Shown: one piece after another, positions 13,960 to 28,519 of the stretch
How positions within the stretch are numbered: the first letter of the stretch is position 1
Layout: each line of letters begins with the position of its first letter
Origin: Escherichia phage NTEC3
DNA length: 44,240 bases
Sequence record: NC_073318.1
Strand: one strand, 5' to 3'
Notes under the pieces: model-generated
Databases searched by the model: none
Told to the model about the DNA's origin: nothing
Seen by the model: only the letters and a program-made list of their open reading frames with translations
Translations under genes and position numbers: made by a program

Positions 13960-14145
13960 TTCAACTTCCAACAGCTTTAGGTCAAGATTCTGGTAGTCCT
14001 CAAACTTAACCCACTTCCCGTGGCGGTCAATGAAATGGTTGTCGGACCCATACTTAGAATATCTCTGTACCATGTTATTTCTCCTGTTTTCCAAGTCGCT
14101 TAGGTGAGCAGATAGCGCGTACCTCTGAATCGTTGGGCTTGTCAC
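13870..14145 (-). CDS. tandem paralog family member A (acidic, C-terminal CxxC)
   Basis: Contains MVQRY...ELQKYKDQFPDYVECANCGSVTHVGGVE. Confidence 0.5.
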   Translation of the reverse strand: MTSPTIQRYALSAHLSDLENRRNNMVQRYSKYGSDNHFIDRHGKWVKFEDYQNLDLKLLEVEAELQKYKDQFPDYVECANCGSVTHVGGVE

Positions 14146-14278
14146 CCTGAAACAGAAAGTGCGCGTTCTCGGCGGCGCGTGCCGCTGACTGGCACGCCTC
14201 CATCGAGTAAAACGTTTCTGATGCCGCCAGGTGCATCTGGCCTGCGGACAGTACCCAGATAAATAAGATGCTGGTCAT
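14075..14278 (-). CDS. small secreted protein (signal peptide, two Cys)
   Basis: 67 aa; hydrophobic N-terminus ILFIWVLSAGQMHLAA followed by polar mature part; overlaps both neighbours. Confidence 0.4.
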   Translation of the reverse strand: MTSILFIWVLSAGQMHLAASETFYSMEACQSAARAAENAHFLFQGDKPNDSEVRAICSPKRLGKQEK

Positions 14279-14748
14279 TTGATTTTCCCGTGGTTGTCGT
14301 GAAACCCATATTTGTTCTCAGCGTCGGCCCTCGCTGCTCTTGCGGCAGAAAGGTCGTCGAAATATCCTAAATGTACATTTTTACCGTTAACCTTTATGGT
14401 CCCTTTCCATTTACCCGCACGCTGGAACCAATACACTCCAGTAACACCTGACCGGTTGTTGGCGGCTAATTTTGTGTTTCTATGGTTTTCGGATGCTGTT
14501 ACTTTCCTAAGATTGCACAAACGATTGTCACTACGGTCGTGATTTATGTGGTCTATTTGCTCCCCTGGGTGAAGTAAATCGTCGGGGTTAAACATGTCCC
14601 ATATTATTCGATGTGCGCGGTACTGCCTCTTTTCGACCTTCAACACAACATAGCCATCCCTATTCTTACACGTTACTTTTGCTGAGGTCTTCTTCCATGA
14701 AAGAATGCCGGTAGTATGGTCATAATCGAATAGTGTGTGCCATTTCAT
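14275..14748 (-). CDS. HNH homing endonuclease with AP2-like DNA-binding domain
   Basis: IDHINHDRSDNRLCNLRKVTASENHRN HNH motif; GVTGVYW...GKWKGTIKVNGKNVHLGYFDD AP2-like segment. Confidence 0.75.
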   Translation of the reverse strand: MKWHTLFDYDHTTGILSWKKTSAKVTCKNRDGYVVLKVEKRQYRAHRIIWDMFNPDDLLHPGEQIDHINHDRSDNRLCNLRKVTASENHRNTKLAANNRSGVTGVYWFQRAGKWKGTIKVNGKNVHLGYFDDLSAARAARADAENKYGFHDNHGKIK

Positions 14749-15212
14749 TTGTTGTCAGCGTCCCATTTTCGGCAACCAGATTGCTCCCACCCGTACCTGC
14801 CCTTGCAGATAAGTTTGTACGACTCCACGTCACCTGTGGCCTCAGCCAGCTGTTTTGTCAGGCCCTTAACTTGCCCTGTCAGGTGCGATATGTGCTCAGA
14901 TTTCTTAATGTTGTCTTCCTGTAACTCGGCCACCAGCGACGAAGCATCACGTAACTGGTTTTTAAGTGACTGCACCTCATGCGCCAGGTCTTCGCACTGG
15001 CTGTTATTTACCTGCTGCCGTAAACTGTCTTTCAGCGCTCGTATTTCGTCATCCTTACCGGCGATATGCTGCTGTAGGTTGTGAATTACCTGCTTGACCT
15101 CATCAAGGTCGGATATCCGCACAGACACATTGAAAGATGTGACATCTTTCTTATTTACCTGCTGCCGTAGTTGGTCAATCAGGTACTCGAATACTTCGTT
15201 TTTGTTACTCAT
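14745..15212 (-). CDS. coiled-coil protein, unknown function
   Basis: 155 aa, heptad-rich (LRQQVN repeats), overlaps HNH gene start. Confidence 0.45.
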   Translation of the reverse strand: MSNKNEVFEYLIDQLRQQVNKKDVTSFNVSVRISDLDEVKQVIHNLQQHIAGKDDEIRALKDSLRQQVNNSQCEDLAHEVQSLKNQLRDASSLVAELQEDNIKKSEHISHLTGQVKGLTKQLAEATGDVESYKLICKGRYGWEQSGCRKWDADNK

Positions 15213-15406
15213 ACTACGTCTCCTACTAACCCAACCTTCATGACGCCGCGTTCACCTTTCTTGCCTGCACGAAGCCACTCACGCGCAACTTTCTCATCAG
15301 TGAACACAAATTTCGGTACGTGCTTTCCGTCGGGGGCGATAACCCACGCCGACCATACCGGGGTAACTTTAATCAAATGCTCGTTTTTAGTATTCATATT
15401 CTTCAC
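15209..15406 (-). CDS. hypothetical protein
   Basis: 65 aa ORF, overlapping neighbour. Confidence 0.4.
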   Translation of the reverse strand: MKNMNTKNEHLIKVTPVWSAWVIAPDGKHVPKFVFTDEKVAREWLRAGKKGERGVMKVGLVGDVV

Positions 15407-15546
15407 TCACTCCGTTATAGACGCCGTTGTAATCTCCGTCGCAGATGAACGGGTAGAGCATATCTTCATACTCGTCCTGCAACTCGCCTAAAGTCACTTC
15501 GCTATAATCTTTCATCCTCTGTCTCTCCTCTCGTTTGTGTAAATGA

Positions 15547-15575
15547 ATAGTAGCCTATTCTATATTAGTGTGCAA
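15547..15575 (-). promoter_or_regulatory. class A promoter variant (internal early promoter)
   Basis: Reverse complement TTGCAC-N17-TACTAT, 26/32 match; upstream of a small minus-strand ORF starting near 15522. Confidence 0.4.
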
Positions 15576-15722
15576 GTAAATTTTATTGGTGTTTGTATTG
15601 TTGCGTCTCCTGCAATAGTCGCTTCGATTGTTGCGTTTGGTGAAATAGAACAAAAATGAGAAAAATGATACGCTGCTGTGTAGCAGCGTAAGTCACTCAG
15701 TAAAATCCCAAACTATTGAACA

Positions 15723-15923
15723 TCACACTTCTGGCGGCTCGGGTAACGGCATCCAGTGCGTCACGTACTTATCGTAGTGATTCCAGAAAGGCTTTCTCCC
15801 GTCATCAGGAACGATGTAATAATCGTGTTGAACTGCGTTATTTAACGTTTCATACACCAGGAACTCTTTATCCGTACACCCATTACCCGGCAGCATCTCA
15901 CTACACTTAATCCACTCACCCAT
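15723..15923 (-). CDS. DUF551-like small protein
   Basis: 66 aa; WIKCSEMLP ... THWMPLPEPP pattern recalled from the DUF551 phage family; not verified by search. Confidence 0.45.
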   Translation of the reverse strand: MGEWIKCSEMLPGNGCTDKEFLVYETLNNAVQHDYYIVPDDGRKPFWNHYDKYVTHWMPLPEPPEV

Positions 15924-16219
15924 ACCTCACACCTCTTTCAATCAAGGATTGCACACCAGCTTTCCACGCCCGCCATGCGAGACGCGTCTTAACGTTCAGG
16001 TACTCTTTCTTCGAACCCTTGTTAACCGGCAGACCCTCGACGACGGCCCACCGTTCGAATGCTTCTCTCATACCAGAACCTCGCATTCATCCCGATACAC
16101 GAACAATAATGACCCTTTGTACTCAATCATAAAACCATAATGGTTGCTGCTGAACGCCAGAAAAACATCACCTACCGAGATACCGAAATCTATAAGCCTG
16201 CGGTCAGTTATTCGAATTC

Positions 16220-16516
16220 TCATTGACGGCAACCTCCCTCAGAGTCGTCGGCACGAGCATCACGATTCGATGCCGTTCTCATAAACAATTTGCCCTTACG
16301 CTGTAGCAAGTCCATCGTTACCACACCTGCACCTGACTTATTAGGGCGACGCAGTATGCTAAAGTTCCATACCCTGGCCTTTGTTACGTCTCTGGCGTTA
16401 CACACCCACAAAGCGCCATTTTCTCTTAGTTCCAGCAATTCAGAAATGTTGAAATTATTTACGGGAATAAACCCGCTAATGAACTGGCGTTCGCATTGAG
16501 GTAATTCTTCCATCAC
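16220..16516 (-). CDS. hypothetical protein
   Basis: 98 aa ORF in early block; coupled to flanking ORFs. Confidence 0.35.
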   Translation of the reverse strand: MMEELPQCERQFISGFIPVNNFNISELLELRENGALWVCNARDVTKARVWNFSILRRPNKSGAGVVTMDLLQRKGKLFMRTASNRDARADDSEGGCRQ

Positions 16517-16713
16517 TTCGCCCCTTTGAATTTAAAATTGTTGCCGATGAGCTTCATTTCATACTCTTGGTAATACGCCGCGGAACTTAACCCGTGCTCC
16601 CTTAGTAAGCTAACGACATAAGAACTTCGATACACTGTCGATTTCTTTTCAATAATACCTAAGCTACCGTATATAGTTTTTACTAACTGACCCTTCTTAA
16701 ACATAACCACCAC
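16513..16713 (-). CDS. first early gene, hypothetical
   Basis: 66 aa; probable ATG at 16704 after AGGAG; about 25 nt downstream of predicted class A promoter. Confidence 0.45.
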   Translation of the reverse strand: MVVMFKKGQLVKTIYGSLGIIEKKSTVYRSSYVVSLLREHGLSSAAYYQEYEMKLIGNNFKFKGAK

Positions 16714-16738
16714 TCCTCTGTCTCGTTCCGATAAGTGA

Positions 16739-16767
16739 ATAGTATCCTATTATATTGGGGTGTGCAA
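16739..16767 (-). promoter_or_regulatory. class A promoter for minus-strand early block
   Basis: Reverse complement reads TTGCAC-N17-TACTAT (31/32 match to consensus); first early ORF about 25 nt downstream. Confidence 0.5.
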
Positions 16768-17016
16768 GAGGATAGTTACGTTGCCGTTGTGATTCTTCGG
16801 GGATGGTTGTGCCATTATTCTTATTACTTGGTAACTAAAGGGCAGGCCTTAAGCCTGCCCAATAATCGTTACATTTTTACGGTTGCGAATCTACGGCACT
16901 TTAAGAAAATCAGATACTTAAGAGATATGCTGTCGATGAGAATAGAGCTTGCCCAGGGCAACCGGAGATACTTAGGAAGGAAAGTTACAACAATTCTCGT
17001 GTTCAGTAAGCCTGCT

Positions 17017-17048
17017 GCTTAACCCTTTGCTTAACGCACGGGTTAAGC
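17017..17048. repeat. 9-bp inverted repeat in divergent control region
   Basis: GCTTAACCC ... GGGTTAAGC separated by 14 nt that re-contain GCTTAAC. Confidence 0.45.
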
Positions 17049-17138
17049 ATTCTTACAAGGTGAACAGGAATCAAAGTAACTAAGATATAGAAGCACCTTA
17101 AACGAAGATTTTCTTAATGTCAATAGGTGTGATTATGT

Positions 17139-17167
17139 TTGATTTCCCATTATTCGCAATGTATACT
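17139..17167 (+). promoter_or_regulatory. candidate sigma70 promoter for replication module
   Basis: TTGATT-N17-TATACT about 30 nt upstream of the HTH gene start at 17200. Confidence 0.35.
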
Positions 17168-17199
17168 TGGTTTCGTTAACTGATAATGAGGGCTTTGGA

Positions 17200-17370
17200 A
17201 TGACACAGAATGAAGTAGCTGAGCGTATCGGGGTTACCCGTCGTACGCTGAATAACTGGTTAAAGAGTGGGAAGTTCCCGGATTGTTGTATTCGCATTAT
17301 GGGCCGCAGGCAGCCTGGTACGTTTGACCCGGAGAAAGTGGAAGCGTGGATTAAGGAGAACGTGAAATGA
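17200..17370 (+). CDS. HTH DNA-binding protein (AlpA/excisionase-like)
   Basis: ORF track starts at TTG 17167; likely ATG 17200 (MTQNEVAERIGVTRRTLNNW) after GAGGG; classic HTH. Confidence 0.55.
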   Translation: MTQNEVAERIGVTRRTLNNWLKSGKFPDCCIRIMGRRQPGTFDPEKVEAWIKENVK

Positions 17371-17600
17371 CAGAGTTTCAGTCACGCGTATTTACGGCAG
17401 TCGTTTCATTAACACGTAAAAAAGGGTCGTGCAGCGTTATCGACTTGCGCCGTAGTTATTTTAAGTACTATAGTTCCGCCATTATTGAAGGGTCGTTGAA
17501 GGTACTGGTTAAATCTGGTGTCGTGAAAAATGTTGGCGGGAAATATAGTGCTGTTGCCGAAGTTCGCGGAATGACCGCTACTTTAGAAGACCTGGAATAA
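17367..17600 (+). CDS. hypothetical protein with C-terminal LEDLE tail
   Basis: 77 aa; start overlaps previous stop (ATGA); C-terminus ATLEDLE resembles tails of two downstream replication proteins. Confidence 0.5.
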   Translation: MTEFQSRVFTAVVSLTRKKGSCSVIDLRRSYFKYYSSAIIEGSLKVLVKSGVVKNVGGKYSAVAEVRGMTATLEDLE

Positions 17601-17617
17601 AAGAAAGCCCCGACGCG

Positions 17618-19900
17618 GTGAACGCCGAGGCCAAATTACTTGCTGAAGGAATATACAACATGTCCGATGTAATTTTATCCTACTCGTGGTCCCGTCGCAA
17701 CGCGCGGGCAGAGAAAAAGGATATAAACGTCAGAACCACGCATGCGGCAACACTGGACGACCTGAAAGAGTTAATCCAGCCGCTCGATGCTGTTCGTGAC
17801 GGGATTAACCCTAAGACCGCGCCCGGCTATATCACAGCCGCGTGCGACTCTACGCACAGCACCGTAAAAGACCCGGAAACTGGGGACTTTAAGCAAGCAC
17901 GTAAAGGCTTCTTCTATCGCTGTGACGCGTCTGTAAGCAAATCGTCGCTCGCCTATCTGGACTTTGACAGTGCAACGCCGGAGGAGTATCAGGAAGCGGT
18001 GCGCCTGGTTAAGCGCAGCCGCCAGGCTATGTGCCTTTACACTACGGCATCCCATACTGATGAGGTCCCCCGCTTCCGCGTCGTCATGCCGCTAGGTCGC
18101 CCGGTCGAAGGTGGTGACATCATCCGCGTTCGTCATGGATTGCTGGAGCACTTCTTTAAAGGCATGGGCGCGGACCGCAGTGGTTTTACTCTGTCGCAGC
18201 CGATGTACCTGCCACCGGTCGGCTCTACCGTTATCTGGTCACGACGCAACGACCTGATTGACCCGGACGAGTTGCTGGAAGGTATCCCTGCCGTTGACGT
18301 TAGCAGCGCATCGGATTACCAGATACCTGAAGAACTGCGCACCGCGTTTACTGATGCGTTCGAGGCACTGGCGTTTGAGTACGGCGGCATCATGACGCCC
18401 CGCGGCCTTAAGATGCCAGCTACACCAGAACACGCAGAAAACTACAGCGACCCGACGCCTCGCCCGGACGACTTCCTGTTGTGTTTTCCGCGCGAGGGAT
18501 ATGAAGCGCCGAACGTAACCATGATTCACGACACCGACATTACGGCAACTGAAGGCATGTCTCCGAAAGAGGTGTGGAAGTATGCGTGCGACGCGACCGG
18601 GCTGCCGTTCAGTGAAGTGGCAGAGGCCATAGGTTGGGGTGCGCGTGAATCCGTTTCATGCAGCCTCGACGACCTGGAAGACGAGGATGACTCAGAGGAG
18701 TACGAGCTACCGGAACCTGTAAAGGCTGATTTCGTCGTAGAAGGGTATATGCCGTCGGATTGTATATGGGATATCGTCGGGGAGTCGGGCACATACAAAT
18801 CGTTCTATACTCTGGGGATGATGTACCTTAGCGCCGCCGGATACCGGTTCGCCGGGGCGGACACCCAGCGTTGCCATCACTTCTATATCGACGGTGAGGG
18901 GGGTGCTGCTACACGTACACGTATTGACGCACTCGCGGCTAAATACGGCGAGGAAGGTAAAGATTATGTACACGTCATCGATATGGGCGAAGTCGGCAAA
19001 CTGAAGAGCCTGATTAAGTTAATGCGCGAAACTGCCGGCGACGAGCCAATCGGCATGGTCGCGTTCGACACCCTAAACCAGACGCTGGCCCTGACGATTG
19101 ATAAGTTCGACGAGAACAGTTCATCAACGGCAATCGGCATGGGTAAAGTCATCGCCATCCTGAAAGAAGTGCGTGACGCGACTAAAGCCGCAGTAGGCGT
19201 TGTCCACCATACGCCGAAGGGTGGAAAGAAAGCACGCGGCAGTGGGGCGCTGTATGCGGGTGTTGACGTGGAACTGACAATCGAACGTGCAACCGACCGT
19301 CAAATAAACGTATACCACTCGAAATTTAAGCACGGTCCTCAACAGAAAACGGTTGGCATGGTGCTGGAGTCTGTGCAGTTCCGCGAAGCTCCGCCGCCGA
19401 AAGAGTACCGTGCGGTTGAGTTCCTGGGGGGCACAGAAGAATACGGCACAATCGTAAACCTGGACCTTCCTGAACCACACAAGGCGCTTGTGTTGATGCC
19501 GTGGGGTTTCGAGCCGTTCAAAACTGACGAGGAGAAAGAGCGGGAAGAAGGGTTGACGAAAGAAGGTAAGCAAAAAGTAAAGGAAGAAGTTAAACGCGGC
19601 AGGGATGAAGTAAGGAAGGAGTCAATACTTTCGGCACTGGAAGACCTGCAACAGTCAGATGACACAGGTCGCGGTTTTACTCAGCAGCAGATAGTGGCTC
19701 GTTCCGGTGACTTCTCTGTGACTAACACCCATCTTGATAAAATGTTGAAAGATGGAGAACTAATGCTTGGTTGCGATGCTAACGGCGAAGTAGTACCGAG
19801 AACATATCGTATACCCGAAAGAATAGGGGATAGATTAAGGCCGAAGACACTATACGAACCAAATGAGATGCTGGTGGTGACAGAGGAGGATTTGGAATAG
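17618..19900 (+). CDS. DNA primase / helicase (RepA/DnaB-like ATPase domain)
   Basis: 760 aa; Walker A-like GESGTYKS, Walker B MVAFDTLN, VVHHTPKGG block typical of RepA-like ATPases; C-terminal VTEEDLE. Confidence 0.7.
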   Translation: MNAEAKLLAEGIYNMSDVILSYSWSRRNARAEKKDINVRTTHAATLDDLKELIQPLDAVRDGINPKTAPGYITAACDSTHSTVKDPETGDFKQARKGFFYRCDASVSKSSLAYLDFDSATPEEYQEAVRLVKRSRQAMCLYTTASHTDEVPRFRVVMPLGRPVEGGDIIRVRHGLLEHFFKGMGADRSGFTLSQPMYLPPVGSTVIWSRRNDLIDPDELLEGIPAVDVSSASDYQIPEELRTAFTDAFEALAFEYGGIMTPRGLKMPATPEHAENYSDPTPRPDDFLLCFPREGYEAPNVTMIHDTDITATEGMSPKEVWKYACDATGLPFSEVAEAIGWGARESVSCSLDDLEDEDDSEEYELPEPVKADFVVEGYMPSDCIWDIVGESGTYKSFYTLGMMYLSAAGYRFAGADTQRCHHFYIDGEGGAATRTRIDALAAKYGEEGKDYVHVIDMGEVGKLKSLIKLMRETAGDEPIGMVAFDTLNQTLALTIDKFDENSSSTAIGMGKVIAILKEVRDATKAAVGVVHHTPKGGKKARGSGALYAGVDVELTIERATDRQINVYHSKFKHGPQQKTVGMVLESVQFREAPPPKEYRAVEFLGGTEEYGTIVNLDLPEPHKALVLMPWGFEPFKTDEEKEREEGLTKEGKQKVKEEVKRGRDEVRKESILSALEDLQQSDDTGRGFTQQQIVARSGDFSVTNTHLDKMLKDGELMLGCDANGEVVPRTYRIPERIGDRLRPKTLYEPNEMLVVTEEDLE

Positions 19901-19927
19901 GTAAAAAGAAAGGGGCTTTAAGCCCCT
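19900..19927 (-). terminator. terminator hairpin at 3' end of XRE gene
   Basis: AGGGGCT-TTA-AGCCCCT stem-loop; minus strand followed by TTCTTTTTAC. Confidence 0.45.
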
Positions 19928-20133
19928 TCACCTAACGCCAGCCACTTGGCGTCTACTTCCAGAACTTCCGCCAGTTTGAACAGCGTTGCCGGGCGGACGT
20001 CCTGAGTTACTCCAAGTGCCAGTTGGTTAATCGCGCCCTGGGAAACGCCGGTCAGGGCCGCCAAACGGCGCTGGGAGATGCCGAGTTCTTTGCGGCGTTG
20101 TTCTACACGGATGCCTAGTTCAGATGGTTGCAT
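19918..20133 (-). CDS. XRE-family (Cro/CI-type) HTH transcriptional regulator
   Basis: 71 aa; LGISQRRLAALTGVSQGAINQLALG is a canonical XRE HTH; RBS AAGGAG; divergent from plus-strand promoter. Confidence 0.75.
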   Translation of the reverse strand: MQPSELGIRVEQRRKELGISQRRLAALTGVSQGAINQLALGVTQDVRPATLFKLAEVLEVDAKWLALGEGA

Positions 20134-20154
20134 GTCAATTACTCCTTAGTCAGT

Positions 20155-20183
20155 TGATATGTGAATAGTACCATATTAATTAT
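20155..20183 (-). promoter_or_regulatory. candidate promoter for XRE repressor gene
   Basis: Minus-strand -10 TACTAT (plus coordinates 20155-20160) inside AATAGTACCATATT palindrome, 22 nt upstream of XRE start codon; -35 weak. Confidence 0.4.
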
Positions 20184-20197
20184 TTTAGAAAAGCCCA

Positions 20198-20226
20198 TTG
20201 ACATGTGAATAGTTCGCTATTATAGT
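20198..20226 (+). promoter_or_regulatory. class B sigma70 promoter, TTGACA-N17-TATAGT, operator in spacer
   Basis: -35 20198-20203, -10 20221-20226; spacer carries AATAGTTCGCTATT palindrome; drives gene at 20258. Confidence 0.6.
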
Positions 20227-20257
20227 TAGCCCATACCAAACGAGAGGAGAGAAACAA

Positions 20258-20758
20258 ATGTTAGAACAATTCTTAAAATTACTGGAACGTTTCGTAGTTG
20301 CACATGAACTGATTGCTGCGAACAGTGCGAAACAGTCAGCACAAGTTGCAGCGCCGTTAGAAGTAGAGACGGTAGTGTATACCAAAGAAGCGGTAGCTGA
20401 GTGCGAAAAAGAAGCAACAAAAGAAATCCCTGTTGAAGGTGAAGACATCGTTGACGCTAAACCAGCAGAAGAAGAGAAGCCGAAACGCAAGCCGCGTAAA
20501 GCTAAAGTAGAGGAGCCGACTCCAGAACCAGAAGAAGAGAAAGAAGAGGTCGATTACCAGTCTCTTCGTGACCAGATTCAGGCTATCGACGATGCGATTA
20601 ACGAAGGCCCAAGCGATGCCGCGTGCGACGATTCCGATGAACTGCTGGAGGAGTTCACCGGTAAGAAAATGAAGATTGCCGCGATTAAAGACGAAGACCT
20701 GGCTGAATACCTGAAACGCCTGACGGCAATCAAGAACAAGTATTTCGAAGAAGAATAA
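20258..20758 (+). CDS. acidic low-complexity protein, unknown function
   Basis: 166 aa, Glu/Lys-rich; RBS GAGAGGAGAG; 32 nt after class B promoter. Confidence 0.5.
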   Translation: MLEQFLKLLERFVVAHELIAANSAKQSAQVAAPLEVETVVYTKEAVAECEKEATKEIPVEGEDIVDAKPAEEEKPKRKPRKAKVEEPTPEPEEEKEEVDYQSLRDQIQAIDDAINEGPSDAACDDSDELLEEFTGKKMKIAAIKDEDLAEYLKRLTAIKNKYFEEE

Positions 20759-20801
20759 TTTATCTGGCGGCCTCCGGGCCGCTTTAACAGAGGGTCGTAA
20801 T

Positions 20802-21074
20802 ATGATTTACCAACTCTACCGAGGTATTGACCGACGGGATAACACAGAGGCGTTGTGGCTGTTGCGTGCGCCGTCCGGCGCGCACCAGATGGAAGAGATG
20901 GCCTACCTCGGCAAAGTACCGAAGCCGAAAGATATAGGCCGTCACCTGTCGCAGATTAAGCGCACGACATTCGTTAAAAGTGACTTTTATGTCTTCGAGT
21001 CGATGTATAGCTGGGCGATGCATTGTGACCACAAGACACGACATTTAATTGACCAGTGGGAGGTCAGGGTATGA
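20802..21074 (+). CDS. hypothetical protein
   Basis: 90 aa ORF with GAGGG RBS; overlaps next gene. Confidence 0.45.
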   Translation: MIYQLYRGIDRRDNTEALWLLRAPSGAHQMEEMAYLGKVPKPKDIGRHLSQIKRTTFVKSDFYVFESMYSWAMHCDHKTRHLIDQWEVRV

Positions 21075-22312
21075 TTTTAAAAGAACGCGGCGGCAATAAC
21101 GATGTGCACGCCCTGCTGTCGCCGTCAGGGGCTAAAAAGTGGCTAAGCTGCGCCGCATCGCTGGCCTGTGAGAAAGATATTCCCAACACGTCAGGTAAAG
21201 CCGCCGTTACAGGTACAGCGTGCCACACCATAGCGGAGGTCCATCTCAACGCCTATATCCGCGGAACTGCACTGCCGTTAGAGCGTGAAGTTGGCGCTTA
21301 CGTGCTGGACGAGGGTAAAGGCCAGATTAAGGCGCTAATCAGCCCGATGAAAGGTGCTGTACTGATTACGGCGGACATGATTGAGCAGGTGCGCAAGTAC
21401 ACCGACTACTGCAAAGCGATTATAGACGTAGCGACTTACGCCAAGCTGGAAATGCGTGTCAATCTTACTGAGGTATTGCATCCGGGGTATGAAGGCGTTG
21501 AGACGTTCGGAACCGCTGACCTCGTTGCTGTCCAGGAACTGGCAAACACCGACGAGCACATGCTCATTATCGGCGACATGAAAACCGGGCGGCATCGCGT
21601 CGAAGCGAAAGAAAACAAGCAGCTTATGCTTTACGCTCTCGGTGTTTATCGTCGACTCAAGAGACGTTATAACATAACAACCGTTCGTCTGGTCATCTTC
21701 CAGCCTTACGCTGGGGGCGCGACAGAGTGGGACATCTCGGTTGAAGGACTGGAACTGTTCGCTAAGTTCGCACAGAAACGCGCGCTGTTAGCGCTTGATG
21801 CGTATTTCCGTGGCAAGAAGAACCTGAAAGCGTCGGACTTCAAGCCATCGGTAGATGGTTGTCAGTGGTGCCGGTTCTCTGAACAATGCGCTGCGCGTAC
21901 AAAGACGGTTAATTCTGTACTGGCGGAAGAACTGGAAGACGACTTTGTGCTGGAACTGACGCCGGAGCAACTCGTAGCTGAGTATGAGAAGTTGCCGCTG
22001 TTGCGCCAGCACATCGACAAGGTTGAGAAAGCTATGGCGGCCGCGTTGCATTCAGGTAAGAAAGTTCCTGGTTACAAGTTGGTTGAAGGCCGCCCGGGTA
22101 ATCGTGCATGGAAAGACGCGGAGAAAGTAACAGAACTCTACGGCGACAAGCTGACTAAAGAAGTGCTCATGTCACCTACCGAAGCTGTTAAAGTCATACC
22201 GGAAGAAGAACTGAAAGACTTCATTACCCGTAAGCCAGGCGCACCATGTGTCGCAACGGCAGACGACAAACGTCCTGAGTGGAATCAGGTAACAGAGGAG
22301 GATTTGGAATGA
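21071..22312 (+). CDS. DUF2800-like PD-(D/E)xK (Cas4/RecB-like) nuclease
   Basis: ADLVAV ... IGDMKTG nuclease-like motifs and C-terminal Cys cluster CQWCRFSEQC; likely start ATG 21071 after GGGAGG; C-terminal VTEEDLE. Confidence 0.65.
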   Translation: MILKERGGNNDVHALLSPSGAKKWLSCAASLACEKDIPNTSGKAAVTGTACHTIAEVHLNAYIRGTALPLEREVGAYVLDEGKGQIKALISPMKGAVLITADMIEQVRKYTDYCKAIIDVATYAKLEMRVNLTEVLHPGYEGVETFGTADLVAVQELANTDEHMLIIGDMKTGRHRVEAKENKQLMLYALGVYRRLKRRYNITTVRLVIFQPYAGGATEWDISVEGLELFAKFAQKRALLALDAYFRGKKNLKASDFKPSVDGCQWCRFSEQCAARTKTVNSVLAEELEDDFVLELTPEQLVAEYEKLPLLRQHIDKVEKAMAAALHSGKKVPGYKLVEGRPGNRAWKDAEKVTELYGDKLTKEVLMSPTEAVKVIPEEELKDFITRKPGAPCVATADDKRPEWNQVTEEDLE

Positions 22313-22512
22313 TTCAAGTAAATGAAATGCCCACAGATAAAGATTTTGTGATGATATGGCGCTGGGGCGGTTATATCCATTCGGAATCGTTTACGTTCCT
22401 GAACGGCACGATGGTGCGATACAACCATGTGGAGGATGAATTCGAACCCGTTGATATGAATGATTTCGAGAACATAGTCCGTATTGCGAAATTTTATTTG
22501 ACACCTGAATAG
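22309..22512 (+). CDS. hypothetical protein
   Basis: Likely start ATG 22309 (MIQVNEM) after GAGGAGG; 67 aa. Confidence 0.45.
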   Translation: MIQVNEMPTDKDFVMIWRWGGYIHSESFTFLNGTMVRYNHVEDEFEPVDMNDFENIVRIAKFYLTPE

Positions 22513-22526
22513 TTAGCTATTATAGT
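22498..22526 (+). promoter_or_regulatory. class B promoter upstream of DUF2815-like gene
   Basis: TTGACA 22498-22503, 17 nt spacer with AATAGTTAGCTAT, TATAGT 22521-22526. Confidence 0.55.
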
Positions 22527-22585
22527 TCTAATCACTGACCGGGCAGCTTCCCGGAGTAAACGAAACTTAAAAGCGAGAAATTAAG

Positions 22586-23212
22586 ATGGGTATTAAACTG
22601 AATCTGCGTAAAGTAAACACTGCTTGGGTTAACGTATTTGAACGTGAAAAAGACCGTGAAAACGATGATGGCTCAATCACTAAAGGCCAGTACAGCGCGA
22701 CTATCATCCTGCCGTCTGACCATGCTCAAATCGATGCACTCTACGACACCGTTTACGCTGTAGTTGAAGAAGCGTTAGGCGCAGCCGCTGCCGAGAAATG
22801 GATGAAGTCCAACTACGGTGAAGGTAAGCACATGGATAAATGCGCGATTAAAGACATTGCCGAGCGCGACAATCCGTTTGAAGACTTCCCGGAAGGCTTC
22901 TACTTCAAAGCGAAGGCACAGAAACAGCCGCTGATTGTAACCTCTAAAAAAGGTGAGACTCAGGTAGAGCAGGACTTCAACGTAGACGGCGAACAGATTG
23001 AAGGTGAACAGGTTTACAGCGGATGCTTAGCTAACGTAAGCGTTGAAATCTGGTTCAGCCAGAAATACAAAGTCCTCGGCGTTAACCTGCTGGCGATTAA
23101 ATACGTTGGCGAAGGCAAAGCGTTCGGCGGTTCTAAAGTCGCTGCGAGCGTCAATGACCTGGAAGACGACGAAGAAGATGAAGCACCGCGCCGCGAACGT
23201 CGCCGCCGCTAA
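22586..23212 (+). CDS. DUF2815-like protein (ssDNA-binding candidate)
   Basis: 208 aa; sits between DUF2800-like nuclease and DNA polymerase as in the known DUF2800-DUF2815-PolA phage module; acidic/basic C-terminus. Confidence 0.55.
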   Translation: MGIKLNLRKVNTAWVNVFEREKDRENDDGSITKGQYSATIILPSDHAQIDALYDTVYAVVEEALGAAAAEKWMKSNYGEGKHMDKCAIKDIAERDNPFEDFPEGFYFKAKAQKQPLIVTSKKGETQVEQDFNVDGEQIEGEQVYSGCLANVSVEIWFSQKYKVLGVNLLAIKYVGEGKAFGGSKVAASVNDLEDDEEDEAPRRERRRR

Positions 23213-23231
23213 TATCTGAATCAATTTAACT

Positions 23232-23256
23232 AAGGCCCTTCATTGGGCCTTTTTAC
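23232..23256 (+). terminator. terminator / attenuator between DUF2815-like gene and DNA polymerase
   Basis: AAGGCCC-TTCATT-GGGCCTT hairpin followed by TTTTT, 16 nt before polymerase ATG. Confidence 0.45.
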
Positions 23257-23271
23257 TAGGGGTCAAAAATA

Positions 23272-25452
23272 ATGAGTTACCTGTTCTTAGACTTTGAAAC
23301 ATTCTCAGAAGCCGATTTGAAGAAAGTCGGTTCTTACGCTTACGCCGAACACCCGTCAACCGAAGTGCTTATCTGTACATATGCTTTTGACGACGAACCT
23401 GTGCGGGTATGGGATTGCACCGACGGCAGCGACATGCCGGGGGATTTACACCGCGCACTGCGCCGCCTTGTTAAGCCCAACAGCCGCATCAAGATGGTGT
23501 GGCACAACGGTGGACTTTTCGACCGCCTAATCATGAAACACTGCTGGGACTTTGATATTCCGGTAAGTAACACCATTGATACTATGATTTGGGCGTTCCG
23601 TCACGCGCTGCCGGGTTCTCTTGATGCGCTGTGCGAAGTGCTGGGCGTGTCTGCAGACAACGCGAAAGATAAACGCGGCAAGGCTCTGATTAAGCGTTTT
23701 TCTAAACCTACGCCGAAGAACTACAAAATCCGCCGCTACACCGCCGATACGCACCCGGACGAGTGGGCGCTGTTCATCAAGTACGCCGTTAGCGACATCA
23801 CTGCGATGCGTGAAGTCTTCCATAAGCTGCCGCGTTGGGGTAACTCCGAGTTCGAAGACCGTGTACTGGAACTGGACCAGTTGATTAACGACCGTGGGTT
23901 TAAGGTTGATGTGACGCTGGCGGAAGCCGCGATTGAAGCCGTGGAAAAACACAAGGCCAAGCTACAGGAAGAAGCACAGCGCAAATACGGCGGCTCGCTT
24001 ACTGGTAAAGACTTCCTGCCGATTCTGCGTGAACTGGCCCCCGCACACCGCATACACAACGCACAGAAGTCGACGCTGAATGACCTGCTGGCCGATGATG
24101 ATTTACCTGACGACGCCCGCACGATTATCGAAATGCGCCTCGGGGCCGCGTCAACAGCGTCCACGAAATATAACCCGCTGCTGTTAGGCCGCTCGTCGGA
24201 CGACCGACGCCGCGGTTGTATCCAGTACGGTGGGGCAAAGCGTACGTTACGGTTCGCGGGTAAAGGCTTCCAGCCACAGAACCTGGCGCGCGGGTACTAT
24301 CACGATGATGAACTGGATAAAGGTATTTCAGCGTTACTTAAGGGCCGCGCGCATCGCCGTTTCGATGTCGCTAAGCTAACGGCATCGACGGTGCGTAGCT
24401 GCATTATCCCGGAAGCCGGAAAAAAGTTTGTCGTCGCCGATTACTCTAACGTTGAAGGTCGGGGGCTTGCGTGGCTGGCAGGCGAAGAAACCGCGCTAGA
24501 TACGTTCCGCGCCGGGCTGGACATTTACTGTGTAACCGCGGGTAAGATGTTCGGCATGGAGCCGGATTACATTAAGAAGGAACGCAAAGACTTGCGCCAG
24601 ATTGGTAAAGCCTGCGAGCTTGGCCTCGGCTACGCTGGTGGTGTTGGCGCTTTCGTTCAGTTTGCTAAGAACCTCGGACTTGACCTTGTTGATATGTCAA
24701 AAACAATGGACGGTACTTTCCCGGACCACATCTGGGCGGCTACTGCACGCGGCTATGAATGGGCACGTATTCAGGAAGCCAAGCGACCGCCGCGACCCGG
24801 GGAGAAGGATGACCGACCATCGTATATTCTTGATAAGAAAGTGTGGCGTACCTGTGACGCTATCAAGCGTATGTGGCGAGAGTCACACCCTGAAACAGTA
24901 GCTTTCTGGCGAGATATTGAAGACGCAGCTATGGCCGCTATCCGCAATCCAGGTAAAGAGTTCACCGCGGGGCCTAGGGGGGTTAAGTTTTCGCGCAACG
25001 TAGAGACAGACAACAACGGCAACAAAGTCGCCGGCTGGTGGTTGCGCATGACGTTGCCGTCGGGTCGCGTTATGTCTTATCCGGGCGTCGGGTTAAGCGT
25101 GTCGAAAGAAACAGACGAAGATGGAAAAGTGTCTACTAACGTACGCATCAAGTACCAGGGGGAGAACCAGTTAACCCGTCAGTGGGGCTTCCAGTACACC
25201 TACTCTGGTAAACTCGTGGAAAACTGTACTCAGGCGCTGTGCCGTGATTTGCTGGCCAATGCACTGCTGAACGTTGAAGCAAACGGCTATCCTATTGTGC
25301 TTCACGTACACGACGAAATTATCTGCGAAACACCAGATACGCCAGAATACAATGTTGCAGAGCTTGAGCGGTTGATGTGCGAATTACCGGAGTGGGCGGA
25401 GGGGTTCCCTCTTGTAGCGGAAGGTGCGGAGATGAAGCGATATGCCAAGTAA
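23272..25452 (+). CDS. family A DNA polymerase with 3'-5' exonuclease domain
   Basis: 726 aa; N-terminal DFETFS exonuclease motif; C-terminal VHDEIICE polymerase motif C. Confidence 0.85.
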   Translation: MSYLFLDFETFSEADLKKVGSYAYAEHPSTEVLICTYAFDDEPVRVWDCTDGSDMPGDLHRALRRLVKPNSRIKMVWHNGGLFDRLIMKHCWDFDIPVSNTIDTMIWAFRHALPGSLDALCEVLGVSADNAKDKRGKALIKRFSKPTPKNYKIRRYTADTHPDEWALFIKYAVSDITAMREVFHKLPRWGNSEFEDRVLELDQLINDRGFKVDVTLAEAAIEAVEKHKAKLQEEAQRKYGGSLTGKDFLPILRELAPAHRIHNAQKSTLNDLLADDDLPDDARTIIEMRLGAASTASTKYNPLLLGRSSDDRRRGCIQYGGAKRTLRFAGKGFQPQNLARGYYHDDELDKGISALLKGRAHRRFDVAKLTASTVRSCIIPEAGKKFVVADYSNVEGRGLAWLAGEETALDTFRAGLDIYCVTAGKMFGMEPDYIKKERKDLRQIGKACELGLGYAGGVGAFVQFAKNLGLDLVDMSKTMDGTFPDHIWAATARGYEWARIQEAKRPPRPGEKDDRPSYILDKKVWRTCDAIKRMWRESHPETVAFWRDIEDAAMAAIRNPGKEFTAGPRGVKFSRNVETDNNGNKVAGWWLRMTLPSGRVMSYPGVGLSVSKETDEDGKVSTNVRIKYQGENQLTRQWGFQYTYSGKLVENCTQALCRDLLANALLNVEANGYPIVLHVHDEIICETPDTPEYNVAELERLMCELPEWAEGFPLVAEGAEMKRYAK

Positions 25453-25573
25453 ACTGATTATTGCGGTACTGGCGGGATTTGCCGCCGGTGTCTACTGTCA
25501 CGAGGGACAATACGGCATGATGGTTGCCATATTGGGCATGTTCATCGCAATTTATATGTGGGTGCTGGAATGA
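25442..25573 (+). CDS. micro-ORF, single-pass membrane peptide (43 aa)
   Basis: Hand-found; ATG overlaps polymerase stop; hydrophobic core IIAVLAGFAAGV / MMVAILGMFIAIYMWVL. Confidence 0.35.
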   Translation: MPSKLIIAVLAGFAAGVYCHEGQYGMMVAILGMFIAIYMWVLE

Positions 25574-25659
25574 AAATTTACTGGTTTTATGAAGAAGACT
25601 GCCGAATCTGCCCGCGCTGCGGGATTGAGCATACGAAACGTGAGGGGTGCGTATTATGA
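25570..25659 (+). CDS. micro-ORF, Cys-rich zinc-ribbon-like peptide (29 aa)
   Basis: ATGA overlap with previous ORF; CRICPRCG ... C pattern. Confidence 0.3.
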   Translation: MKIYWFYEEDCRICPRCGIEHTKREGCVL

Positions 25660-25809
25660 CAATGTTTGTATTTAGGACCATAGTAACCATGCTCGCACTG
25701 TTACTCGGTGCGGGAATAGCTGCTATGTTCTGTTACGGCCTGTTCTTTCAGTTTGCCGGTGTTGCCATTCTAGGCTGGGTTTTCCTTACCTGGATGCTGC
25801 GGTCATGAC
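25656..25809 (+). CDS. micro-ORF, membrane peptide (50 aa)
   Basis: ATGA overlap both sides; two hydrophobic stretches. Confidence 0.35.
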
Positions 25810-26089
25810 TAAAGAGGGACGCATCCAGAAATACGCAAAAGAGCGATTCGAGGCCATTGGTGGCCTCGTTCGTAAGCTGTCTTATGAGGGGCGCTCCGGC
25901 GCCCCCGACCTGCTGGTAATTCTCCCCGGCGGCATCGTCTGGTTCGTCGAGGTTAAGAAAGACGAAAACACGAAGCCAGACCCGCACCAGATACGAGAGC
26001 ACGAGCGGATGCGTAAACGCGGTGCAAATGTTTTTGTCGTCGGTTCGTTTAAACAGGTTGACGACCTAATAGCGAACTATTATAGTTAG
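25805..26089 (+). CDS. VRR-NUC domain nuclease
   Basis: 94 aa; GAPDLLVI ... VEVKK fits the PD-(D/E)xK VRR-NUC signature. Confidence 0.65.
   Translation: MTKEGRIQKYAKERFEAIGGLVRKLSYEGRSGAPDLLVILPGGIVWFVEVKKDENTKPDPHQIREHERMRKRGANVFVVGSFKQVDDLIANYYS
26058..26086 (+). promoter_or_regulatory. class B promoter upstream of 63 aa / methyltransferase / SNF2 genes
   Basis: TTGACG 26058-26063, spacer with AATAGCGAACTAT, TATAGT 26081-26086; overlaps 3' end of VRR-NUC gene. Confidence 0.55.
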
Positions 26090-26119
26090 TCCTACACCAA
26101 CAATATAAGGAATTGAGAA

Positions 26120-26311
26120 ATGAAACACGAATATGACCGAAAACCTGCACGTGACATCGTACCAGGCGACATGATTTTCAACGTTAAGACCCGTCGTCCT
26201 GTTGCCGTTGATACAGTGTTCGTCGAGTCGAACGGTAAACTGGTTATCGAAGATGTAACCGGCAATATTACGGCGTTCGGGCGTAAAGAGTTAGTTCTGG
26301 TGGCAAAATGA
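26120..26311 (+). CDS. hypothetical small protein, coupled to methyltransferase
   Basis: 63 aa; RBS AAGGAA; stop overlaps methyltransferase start (ATGA). Confidence 0.45.
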   Translation: MKHEYDRKPARDIVPGDMIFNVKTRRPVAVDTVFVESNGKLVIEDVTGNITAFGRKELVLVAK

Positions 26312-27102
26312 ACTATTACAACGAATGGGATAAAGGCGCAGCCGCGTGGCTGCGTGAATTAATAAAACAGGGTCACATACCTTTTGGAGTTGTAGATGAA
26401 AGAAGCATTACCGAAGTTAGACCAGAAGACCTTGACGGGTTCACCCAGTGTCATTTTTTCGCGGGTATTGGCGGCTGGCCTCTCGCGCTCAGACTTGCGG
26501 GAGTTTCTGAAGATACGCCTATATGGACGGGAAGTCCGCCTTGCCAACCGTTTAGCACGGCAGGAAAGCAACTCGGACAGTTCGACCAGAGACACCTCGC
26601 ACCTGTGCTCCTCGACCTCATCAGCGAGTGCCACCCTCCAGTCATCTTTGGGGAGCAGGTTGCGGCAGCAATTGCAAAATCGTGGATGTGCGATTTACAA
26701 ACTCACCTGGAAAGAGAAGACTACGCCGTCGGGTTTGCCGTACTCCCAGCTTGTAGCGTCGGCGCACCGCACAAAAGGAATCGATTGTTCTTCGGAGCGC
26801 AGCAACTGGCCAACACCGTGTGCGAACAACTCGGCGGGAGCAGGCCATCAGGGCAGGAACGGGGGCCACAATCTGCAAACAGAGGCATCTCTGACACAGC
26901 CAATCCGCCTAACGGGTTCTGGTCAGATGCTGACTGGCTCGGATGCCGGGATGGAAAATTCAGGCCAGTTGAACCCAGCACATTCCCGCTGGCTAATGGG
27001 GTACCCGCCAGAGTGGGACGATTGCGCGGTTACGGCAATGCTATCGTCCCGCAAGTAGCCGCTGAATTTATAAAGGCGTTCATGGGGGCCGTAAATGAGT
27101 AA
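26308..27102 (+). CDS. DNA (cytosine-5)-methyltransferase, compact form
   Basis: Motif I FAGIGG, motif IV PCQPFS (catalytic Cys), ENV-like GEQV, motif VIII-like HKRNRLFF, motif X GNAIVP; only 264 aa. Confidence 0.7.
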
Positions 27103-28519
27103 GTTTCAAAGGCGCGAATACCAGAAGCTAATGACTTCGTTCATGTTGCGGCACCATCGCTGTAATATTTGGGCGAGCATGGGCGCCGGGAAGACTGGCA
27201 GCGTACTGTGGACATTAAACCGACTGTTCCGCAACGGGCAGCTTACAGAAGAGGACCGCGTGTTAATCCTCGCCCCGTTGCGCGTTGCGTCCGGCACATG
27301 GCCGGCGGAACAAACTAAGTGGAATTTCCCATGTCTGCGTGTCGTAGACGCGACCGGTTCAGAGAAGCGCCGCATCGCGGCGCTGGAGTCAGATGCTAAC
27401 GTGGTGTGCACGAACTACGAAGTTATCGAGTGGCTTATTGACTACTACGGCAAAGACGACTGGCCTTTTACCGTTATCGTTGCCGATGAAAGCACGAAAC
27501 TGAAGTCATTCCGCAGCCGTTCAGGCGGCAGCAAGAGGGCAAAGGCGCTTAGTAAAGTGGCATTTGGCAAAGTTAAGCGTTTCATTAACCTGACTGGCAC
27601 GCCGTCACCAAACGGCCTCAAGGACTTGTGGGGGCAGAACTGGTTTATCGACGCAGGCGAGCGCCTGGGGTCATCGTACACAGCATTCACCGACCGCTGG
27701 TTTAACTCGGTACAGAAAGGGAAATCTGCGATGGCCCGTGAATACCACGCACGCCCGGGTGCGGATAATGAAATTCACCAGAAGATGAAGGACATTAGTC
27801 TCACGATTGACGCCGCCGAGTGGTTCGGGTGTGAAGCGCCGATTATTGTGCCGGTTGAAATCGACCTGCCGAAGAAAGCACGTCAGGCGTACATCGATAT
27901 GGAGGAGAAGTTATTCGCGGAACTGGAAAGCGGAGAAGTTGAAGCGGCTAACGCTGCGGCGAAGACGTCGAAGTGCCTACAGATTGCCTCCGGTGCCGTG
28001 TATGTATCGGGGCCAGATGGCGAATCAACCAAAGAATGGGAGAAAGTGCACGACACGAAACTTGATGCGCTGGAGTCAATTGTGGAGGAGTTGCAGGGCG
28101 CGCCGTTGCTGGTCGCCTATCAGTTCAAGCACGAACTTGAGCGCATCCTTAAGCGATTCCCACAGGCGCAGGCGTTTTCCAAAGGCGCGAAGGGTAATAA
28201 GCAGATGGAAGCGTGGAACCGCGGCGAAATAGAAATCTTATGCGTACACCCTGCGTCAGCCGGGCATGGTTTGAATTTACAGGACGGCGGCCATCATCTG
28301 GCGTTTATTTCACAAGGCTGGAATCTTGAGCACTATTTGCAGGTTGTCGAGCGCATCGGCCCTGTTCGCCAGAAACAAGCTGGGCACGAGCGCCCGGTGT
28401 TCCTTTATCACATAGTCGCTAAAGACACGCTGGACGAGGTTGTTGCCGCGCGTACCGACGAGAAGAAATCGGTACAGGAAGAGTTGCTTAACTACATGAA
28501 GAGACGAGGTAAGAAATGA
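27095..28519 (+). CDS. SNF2-family helicase / ATPase
   Basis: Walker A ASMGAGKTG, DExx box VADEST, LTGTPSPN motif III. Confidence 0.75.
   Translation: MSKFQRREYQKLMTSFMLRHHRCNIWASMGAGKTGSVLWTLNRLFRNGQLTEEDRVLILAPLRVASGTWPAEQTKWNFPCLRVVDATGSEKRRIAALESDANVVCTNYEVIEWLIDYYGKDDWPFTVIVADESTKLKSFRSRSGGSKRAKALSKVAFGKVKRFINLTGTPSPNGLKDLWGQNWFIDAGERLGSSYTAFTDRWFNSVQKGKSAMAREYHARPGADNEIHQKMKDISLTIDAAEWFGCEAPIIVPVEIDLPKKARQAYIDMEEKLFAELESGEVEAANAAAKTSKCLQIASGAVYVSGPDGESTKEWEKVHDTKLDALESIVEELQGAPLLVAYQFKHELERILKRFPQAQAFSKGAKGNKQMEAWNRGEIEILCVHPASAGHGLNLQDGGHHLAFISQGWNLEHYLQVVERIGPVRQKQAGHERPVFLYHIVAKDTLDEVVAARTDEKKSVQEELLNYMKRRGKK

Follow-up and report, generated by a model that had tools for sequence, protein, structure and literature searches.

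Why do several proteins of one phage replication module carry the same short acidic peptide, and is it the peptide or the DNA encoding it that has been kept? The question is raised by the replication region of Escherichia phage NTEC3 (sequence record NC_073318.1), whose whole 44,240-nucleotide (nt) stretch was analyzed and is referred to as the window. A sequence-only reading of this DNA, made without database searches, had noted that the helicase-primase, the DUF2800-type nuclease and a 77-amino-acid (77-aa) protein end in EDLE, and had proposed that the tail probably recruits them to a common partner, as the acidic tails of the helicase and the single-stranded DNA-binding protein (SSB) of T7 do. 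The common-partner interpretation is supported by the sequence comparisons presented here, in which the motif turned out to occupy more sites than the three tails. We put the probability that it is a T7-like docking peptide for one co-evolving receptor site encoded by the phage at roughly 0.6. The genes and motif copies concerned are as follows.

17367..17600, plus strand: 77-aa protein, modeled as a winged helix (phrog_5169); C-terminus ...GMTATLEDLE, tail codons at 17580-17597
17618/17660..19900, plus strand: replicative helicase-primase (AAA_25 in Pfam, phrog_3228); C-terminus ...EMLVVTEEDLE
18662..18679, plus strand: linker motif SLDDLE of the helicase-primase, followed by DEDDSEE, located by a regular-expression scan just upstream of the helicase domain
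19880..19898, plus strand: first copy of the 19-mer ACAGAGGAGGATTTGGAAT; TEEDLE of the helicase-primase at 19880-19897, with TAG next
21056/21071..22312, plus strand: DUF2800 / PD-(D/E)XK (Cas4-like) exonuclease (phrog_69 exonuclease); C-terminus ...EWNQVTEEDLE
22292..22310, plus strand: second copy of the 19-mer ACAGAGGAGGATTTGGAAT; TEEDLE of the nuclease at 22292-22309
22586..23212, plus strand: DUF2815 / T7 gp2.5-like SSB (Enc34_ssDNA-bd in Pfam); motif SVNDLE at 23147-23164
23272..25452, plus strand: family A DNA polymerase with a 3'-5' exonuclease domain (DNA_pol_A in Pfam); C-terminus ..AEMKRYAK, no acidic tail

The motif in the window

The translations and a sequence scan confirmed that the helicase-primase and the nuclease both finish in VTEEDLE, and that the same 19-mer encodes both ends. 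The 77-aa protein finishes in ATLEDLE, as had been reported, from codons (GAAGACCTGGAA) that are unlike the 19-mer. The 19-mer was found exactly twice in the window, with no further site even at three mismatches, and 100 dinucleotide shuffles gave an expectation of 0 occurrences when three mismatches were allowed. The six frames contain 458 stop-to-stop open reading frames (ORFs) with a length of 45 aa or more, and exactly three of them have a DLE C-terminus, namely those of the helicase-primase, the nuclease and the 77-aa protein. Four of the six residues of TEEDLE are acidic, and the helicase-primase and nuclease ORFs are the only ones in the window with at least four Asp or Glu among the last seven residues.

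The three tails named by the sequence-only reading were thus all recovered, but the motif is not confined to them, as it occurs at further sites in the SSB and in the linker of the helicase-primase. The pattern [TS].[DEN]DLE gave five matches in 42,798 six-frame residues, all within the helicase-primase (two), the nuclease, the SSB and the 77-aa protein. Shuffled sequences were matched 0.13 times on average and never more than twice, a comparison that is descriptive and no formal test, since the pattern was chosen post hoc. In the helicase-primase alignment, the linker block C-[STQD]-x-[DEAF]-D-L-[EDM]-[DN]-[ED] was kept in all genera compared. In the SSB, SVNDLE directly follows the OB domain and lies 19 residues before the C-terminus, followed by acidic DDEEDE and basic APRRERRRR. 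Residues D191 and L192 are invariant across SSB alleles that are 48-99% identical, and [AV][TN]D[DS]DL with a poly-Asp/Glu run was found in every genus compared.

The tails of the nuclease and the 77-aa protein are C-terminal and lie outside the fold. Pfam assigned the nuclease to DUF2800/PDDEXK_1 (E=9.7e-69) with a model that stops about 11 residues short of the C-terminus, which places the tail beyond the end of the domain. The AlphaFold2 (AF2) model of the 77-aa protein has the order H-H-H-beta-beta and a predicted local distance difference test (pLDDT) score of 89.9, with values above 90 in the core and of about 69 in the tail. Foldseek matched this model to the winged helices of LexA-N, MotA-N, Fur/PerR, IclR and RPA32C at TM scores of 0.6-0.7 and with weak E-values; based on the model, we are confident in its assignment as a winged helix. 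The protein is restricted to Kagunavirus and Jerseyvirus, where copies that are about 69% identical carry the tail T[LP]EDLE encoded by other codons, and a variant in some Kagunavirus contigs that is 32-34% identical also ends in ..DLE.

The C-terminus of the SSB varies in other respects. The phage group of the window has an added basic end (APRRERRRR, 23165-23209) in place of a terminal acidic tail, and the SSBs of Dhillonvirus, Eiauvirus and the clade of L057 (L006, L007 and L057) have several alternating acidic and basic repeats (..DDEDDKPRKSKKSKRR..) at the C-terminus. The ORF at the SSB position of the tail-less lineage L174-L183 (L183, 11044-11715) finishes in ..RRRRVVA.

Conservation in related genera

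Conservation in homologs had been suggested as a check on the tail. We analyzed 74 related IMG/VR loci and several annotated phages, with homologs assigned by BLASTP. A direct search for nuclease homologs returned only relatives that are 95-99% identical, and the diversity was taken from a search of clusters at 50% identity. All 74 loci that contain both genes had the tail, which was present in every complete helicase-primase and in nearly every nuclease, and its absence in close homologs was not seen. The tail-bearing taxa are Kagunavirus, Jerseyvirus, Cornellvirus, Dhillonvirus, Eiauvirus and two further clades, with the following ends.

Kagunavirus: helicase-primase ..VTEEDLE, nuclease ..V[TS]EEDLE
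Jerseyvirus: helicase-primase ..TTEGDLE, nuclease ..VTE[ED]DL(EA)
Cornellvirus: helicase-primase ..SEEDDLEN, nuclease ..ATDSDLDD
GRNsp27: helicase-primase ..SEEDDLEN, nuclease ..VTDDDLAN
Dhillonvirus: helicase-primase ..ATDDDLKD, nuclease ..ATDEDLSNE
Eiauvirus: helicase-primase ..ATNSDLED, nuclease ..VKDDDLVD
Clade L057-L064: helicase-primase ..ASDEDLNS, nuclease ..ASDEDLS

The helicase-primases outside Kagunavirus are only 27-33% identical to that of the window and are frequently encoded on the opposite strand, yet the tail is still kept. Similarly, [AV][TS][DE]xDLx is retained in the DUF2800 cluster representatives down to approximately 36-43% identity. The helicase-primase tails comprise 10 peptides encoded by 32 distinct 18-mers, with TEEDLE encoded by 11 of these and DDDLKD by 9. 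Because the tail persists through many synonymous changes, including those in divergent genes, the comparisons indicate that it is a real peptide motif under selection at the peptide level. The helicase-primase of Kagunavirus occurs as no fewer than five highly divergent alleles (98, 87, 65, 53, 32 and 27% identity to that of the window), all of which end in ..YEPNEML[TV]VTEEDLE; whichever allele is resident, the tail is retained. No aromatic residue was found in the tails across the 74 related loci, which end in Leu-Glu, Leu-x-Asp or Leu.

The helicase-primase alleles in L009, L010, L017, L022 and L033 (87-27% identity) are near-identical to that of the window at the DNA level only over the last 60 nt or so. 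Judged from this pattern, it looks like allele replacement in Kagunavirus with a breakpoint within the tail-coding end.

Matching tips in distant phages

The genes for the DUF2800 nuclease, the DUF2815 SSB and the family A polymerase are adjacent in the window, which thus contains the DUF2800/DUF2815/PolA replication module that has already been described (PMC8093625). Distant loci with this module were collected from single DUF2800 representatives, of which P0180 gave 80 loci, P0239 gave 13, P0201 gave 1 and P0174 gave 0. Loci L137-L170 were left out, as all they contain is a nuclease-like ORF that is short (about 250 aa), and the module is missing. In several of these phages the tips differ from those above but match each other within a genome.

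Enc34: primase ..DDEDEV, exonuclease ..DDDEV, SSB ..DEDEV, ORF3 ..EEEEV, TerS ..DDDEV, ORF17 ..ADDEV
Chi-like Season12: the same protein set as in Enc34, all ..DEV
Aeromonas AVP3: six proteins with ..E[ED]L
Xanthomonas FoX4: five proteins with ..[DE][DE]L, and a SNF2-type helicase with ..DLEL
L132: nuclease ..LEDLA, SSB ..GDDLA, primase-helicase ..VEDLA
Phocaeicola BM127P1: SSB ..DDIFG, primase-helicase ..LDLFG
L112: SSB ..DDLPF, primase-helicase ..KGVPF
Streptococcus Javan25: SSB ..DDFLN, primase-helicase ..YDFLD

The match was evaluated by a permutation test with one representative per 50%-identity nuclease cluster, in which the partners were shuffled among lineages and the last 2-4 residues compared. 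The tips of the SSB and the primase-helicase matched at p=1e-5, which is the floor of the test (n=21 lineages), those of the nuclease and the primase-helicase at p=0.002-0.004 (n=23 lineages), and those of the nuclease and the SSB at p=0.006-0.013 (n=25 lineages). Control permutations with the polymerase C-terminus gave p=0.25-0.87. When lineages were delimited more strictly, by single linkage at 40% identity (16 lineages) or 35% identity (13 lineages), the match between the SSB and the primase-helicase remained significant (p=1e-4 to 0.02). Counted by lineage, acidic tails were present in 21 of 29 nucleases, 14 of 28 SSBs and 14 of 26 primase-helicases, and in none of the polymerases (0/27).

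The small terminase ends in ..DDDEV or ..EDEEL in Enc34 (L186, 10318-10893), L082 (10721-11290), L084 (12379-12981) and L086 (10410-10997), and ORF17 of Enc34 (L186, 17801-18085) shares the tip as well. Such shared ends hint that replication and packaging proteins are connected in Casjensviridae. Other DUF2815-type SSBs have tips that resemble those of bacterial SSBs, namely ..FDDDIPF in L108, ..DDEIPF in L185 ..DDLPF in L112 and ..GDLPF in L173. In the lineages L108, L185, L112 and L173 the tail may address the interaction partners of the host SSB.

Proposed mechanism and comparison with known tails

We propose that [AV]-[TS]-[DE]-x-D-L-[DE] is a short linear docking motif on flexible ends and linkers of replication-module proteins. 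Its carriers would be the helicase-primase (linker and C-terminus), the exonuclease (C-terminus), the SSB (the segment after the OB domain) and the predicted winged-helix protein (C-terminus). A single phage receptor site that co-evolves with the tails would read all copies, and since one site would serve all of them, the carriers would be recruited to the same place in the replisome and compete or exchange there. If the T7 arrangement is a guide, the tails most likely bind a basic patch on the family A polymerase. This first candidate is favoured indirectly, as it is the one core protein of the module in which the tail was never found; the groove in which the gp2.5-like SSB binds ssDNA would be a second candidate or an additional site. 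From the conservation of the motif, its co-variation and the T7 analogy we infer both the binding to a partner and the identity of that partner.

The T7 analogy drawn by the sequence-only reading holds as a pattern, with gp4 ending in ..DTDF, gp2.5 in ..DGDF and the polymerase having no such tail. The replisomes are of the same type, with a family A polymerase, a fused primase-helicase and an SSB of the gp2.5 fold, and both have short, disordered acidic C-terminal tails whose tip is common to at least two replisome proteins and missing from the polymerase. T7 gp5 has two basic patches to which the tails of gp4 bind (PMC12593628); the tail of gp2.5 is anchored at the front basic patch, and a DTDF peptide is contained in PDB 6P7E (PMC12339929). 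Suppressors of a gp2.5 mutant that lacks the terminal Phe map to the T7 polymerase. The documented roles of the T7 tails are polymerase tethering and exchange, and SSB displacement (PMC12593628, PMC12339929). In crystals of the Enc34 DUF2815 protein and of T7 gp2.5, acidic tails occupy the ssDNA-binding groove; in the case of Enc34, the acidic and disordered C-terminus sits in the groove of the beta-sheet of a neighbouring molecule (PMC5686142).

The system in the window also differs from that of T7. The tip here is Asp-Leu-Glu or Asp-Leu-x-Asp, with a conserved Thr or Ser three residues upstream of Asp-Leu. The carriers include the PD-(D/E)XK exonuclease and the putative winged-helix protein, whereas the exonuclease of T7, gp6, lacks one. 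Within the helicase-primase lies a second copy of the motif, and the SSB copy is internal and followed by basic RRERRRR. The tip of bacterial SSBs (..DDDIPF) is similar in that an acidic stretch with a hydrophobic tip on a disordered tail organizes many DNA-metabolism proteins; however, there one carrier is met by many readers, whereas here many carriers imply one reader. Neither the end of the window SSB (APRRERRRR) nor the motif DLE matches the bacterial SSB-Ct consensus D-D-D-[IL]-P-F. The Enc34 ORF6 SSB belongs to the same Pfam family as the SSB of the window, but the structural paper treats the SSB tail alone (PMC5686142) and the Kagunavirus tip is DLE. By sequence comparison, the primase, exonuclease, ORF3, TerS and ORF17 of Enc34 all share the ..[DE][DE]EV tip of its SSB. 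No published description of shared tails in this module was found in a literature coverage that lay mainly outside subscription journals.

Several results weigh against a T7-like docking peptide. The tails lack a C-terminal aromatic residue, whereas the T7 tip ends in Phe, and a terminal aromatic is essential in both T7 tails and bacterial SSB tips. This defining residue is missing, and the motif falls outside the T7 family in the strict sense, with a working principle that would be T7-like and, more loosely, like that of the bacterial SSB-tip hub. In the lineage of the window the SSB copy is internal with a basic tail after it, so that the tip of this protein is RRERRRR and not the motif, and the AF2 model of the SSB (from a 13-sequence alignment) has a pLDDT of 34.7, which is too low for judging docking of the motif on the OB fold. 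A conserved Cys precedes the linker copy of the helicase, which may belong to a fold rather than being a free peptide. The match between nuclease and primase-helicase tips became marginal in the 40% and 35% clusterings (p=0.03-0.08), and no matching tails were found in L174-L183, in Liberibacter SC2 or in the RcAquaphina primase. Finally, the small terminase of Casjensviridae carries the tip too, which suits a general hub better than a receptor on the polymerase.

Alternative explanations

The sequence-only reading had also mentioned the nucleotide identity of the two copies, and at the nuclease copy the DNA has a second role that involves the next gene.

22309..22512: 67-aa gene overlapping the end of the nuclease gene, ATG at 22309-22311

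The tail could be the by-product of a constraint on the DNA, with GAGGAGGATTTGGAATGA serving as Shine-Dalgarno sequence and start for a translationally coupled next gene and the peptide being incidental. The nuclease tail codons indeed include GAGGAGG (22295-22301), a Shine-Dalgarno sequence that precedes the start codon of the overlapping gene by 7 nt, and this ATG is formed from the final GAA of the nuclease plus TGA. Among the relatives, GAGGAG occurs in 25 of the 28 nuclease tails that overlap a downstream start and in 0 of the 18 that do not, and in L012, L017 and L022 the helicase-primase likewise ends in ..GGAATGA with an overlapping downstream gene. In the window, however, the coupling signal is not present at the helicase copy, where TAG is followed by no start codon and then by a hairpin. 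The nuclease tails without an overlapping start, 17 of 18 of which have GAAGAA, still encode SEEDLE, which persists as AGTGAAGAAGATTTGGAATAA with no signal and with a promoter-like TTGACA after it. Moreover, the tail of the 77-aa protein is encoded by GAAGACCTGGAA, the tails of Cornellvirus, Dhillonvirus and Eiauvirus have neither the Shine-Dalgarno string nor a coupled gene, and the matching tips of distant lineages occur without coupled starts or Shine-Dalgarno-like strings and with codons that differ inside one genome. As the cause of the peptide, the coupling signal is largely refuted and must be considered extremely unlikely; it accounts for the 19-nt identity and not for the motif. Another explanation at the DNA level is that the tail-coding segments are conserved linkers for recombination, or tracts of gene conversion, where modules meet, so that their similarity would reflect DNA exchange and not protein function. 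This agrees with an exact 19-nt repeat whose copies are 2.4 kb apart in one genome, and with the last 60 nt or so that divergent Kagunavirus helicase-primase alleles share almost identically, as breakpoints there predict. Yet, of the 17 relatives that have an identical 6-aa tail on the two proteins, only 3 are identical at the nucleotide level, whereas 7 differ by 1 nt, 5 by 2 and 2 by 3. Other genera use differing codons in the two genes, such as GCGACCGATGACGATTTA versus GCTACTGACGAGGACTTA in StarDew, and the motif is also internal to the SSB and the helicase-primase, away from gene boundaries. Gene conversion was rejected as the source of the 19-nt identity on these synonymous differences, which indicate that the tail-coding DNA goes with its own gene rather than grouping by genome, and exchange at the DNA level is a most improbable origin of the tails. 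Because only 3 of the 17 relatives are identical, the exact 19-nt identity is incidental, with the same peptide combined with the same embedded translation signal. The identical stretch is not meaningful in itself; it is mostly not kept in relatives, and dual coding accounts for it.

At the protein level, each acidic tail might work only in cis as a DNA mimic that regulates DNA binding by folding onto the DNA-binding surface of its own protein, in which case no common partner would be involved. Every carrier is a DNA-binding protein, the Enc34 SSB without its acidic tail has an altered DNA-binding specificity (PMC5686142), and the T7 gp2.5 tail and ssDNA compete for one surface (PMC5686142 and work cited there). 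We find this rather unlikely, however, as independent autoinhibition leaves the phage-specific sharing of the last 2-4 residues unexplained, and the invariant Thr/Ser and Asp-Leu suggest a specific pocket rather than bulk charge. Alternatively, the tail could be read by a host factor, such as the beta clamp, one of the proteins in the interaction network of the host SSB, or a protease adaptor for which the tail would be a common degron. A host receptor is plausible in the distant lineages in which DUF2815-type SSBs have tips like those of the host SSB (L108, L185 and L112). As the general explanation of the tail a host factor is very unlikely, as the tips differ on the same enterobacterial hosts, with EDLE in Kagunavirus, DDLxD in Dhillonvirus, DDEV in Chivirus and DxDF in T7; this favours a phage-encoded rather than a host receptor. 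Beta-clamp-binding motifs are of the type Q-L-[SD]-L-F or a QxxLxxF-type hydrophobic pentapeptide, and TEEDLE, which lacks Gln and contains only one hydrophobic residue, does not match the consensus QL[SD]LF. To our knowledge, TEEDLE resembles no known C-terminal degron of E. coli.

Implications

If the tails dock as proposed, they would provide a testable wiring diagram of the replisome for a module that is very common yet unstudied by biochemistry and is present in Guernseyvirinae, Dhillonvirus, Casjensviridae, many Firmicutes prophages and Bacteroides phages. The diagram would show which proteins compete for one site and would add the Cas4-like exonuclease and the putative winged-helix protein to the replisome, and tail swaps would be predicted to break or re-target assembly. 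The tips are short peptides that might specifically inhibit phage replication.

More tentatively, and at odds that we place well below even, the tips may constitute a phage-specific C-terminal address code, in which a tip of 2-4 residues that differs between lineages is present on up to 6-7 proteins and is read by one co-evolving receptor, such that replication factories are insulated from those of co-infecting relatives. The carriers of this possible code would be the SSB, the primase-helicase, the exonuclease, the SNF2-type helicase and a small acidic protein, with the small terminase also among them. If so, the replication and packaging factory of each phage would be wired via one exchangeable socket. 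Lineage-specific tips could also determine which exchanges of alleles between phages are tolerated, and divergent helicase-primase alleles retain the resident tail.

Genome context and further observations

The genome is that of a Kagunavirus (Guernseyvirinae) siphophage, collinear with Escherichia phage vB_EcoS_SCS92 and near Bas73. The window and SCS92 (ON548432.1) are both 44,240 nt long with equal gene coordinates, and are identical at 14100-17691. From 17692 to 27847 they differ by 805 substitutions, chiefly at third codon positions, and by 0 insertions or deletions, with the SSB being just 70% identical. Phage 590B has a nuclease with 100% identity to that of the window, and the window SSB matches the one of Bas73 at 97% identity. 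The divergence from 17692 onward, together with these identities of the nuclease and the SSB, identifies the window as a mosaic relative of SCS92.

The order of the module is HTH_17 protein, 77-aa protein, helicase-primase, convergent helix-turn-helix (HTH) repressor-like gene, 166-aa acidic protein, DUF2800 exonuclease, overlapping 67-aa gene, DUF2815 SSB, family A polymerase and, farther on at 27095..28519, a SNF2-type helicase. The features between the helicase-primase and the nuclease are as follows.

19905..19930: G+C-rich hairpin GGGGCTTTAAGCCCC, spotted by eye where the helicase-primase and HTH genes converge; likely a bidirectional terminator
19918..20133, minus strand: convergent HTH gene with a match to HTH_3 in Pfam
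20258-20758: 166-aa acidic protein (phrog_3127), directly upstream of the nuclease gene

When the PDB was searched by sequence, the helicase-primase had no relative of solved structure, and the polymerase was matched distantly over residues 372-484 only. The polymerase gene of Salmonella phage AG11 (L003, 11367-14465) has 1032 codons as compared to 726 in the window, and the match breaks at residue 448, which suggests an insertion, for example of an intein or a homing endonuclease. In an alignment of 48 DUF2800 proteins, the nuclease cysteines C27, C264, C267 and C273 were invariant or almost so, a pattern that would fit an iron-sulfur cluster of the Cas4/AddB type.

The 166-aa acidic protein has a conserved C-terminal tail of its own, [YF][YF]x[VIFL]E[ED][ED], which reads ..KYFEEE in Kagunavirus, ..YYHVEEE in VSiP, ..TYFELED in StarDew and ..FFEFEEE in eiAU. 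The protein encoded at this position in Casjensviridae and L132 has the tip of its lineage instead, with ..EEEEV in ORF3 of Enc34, ..EEEDL in AVP3 and ..DDQLA in L132.

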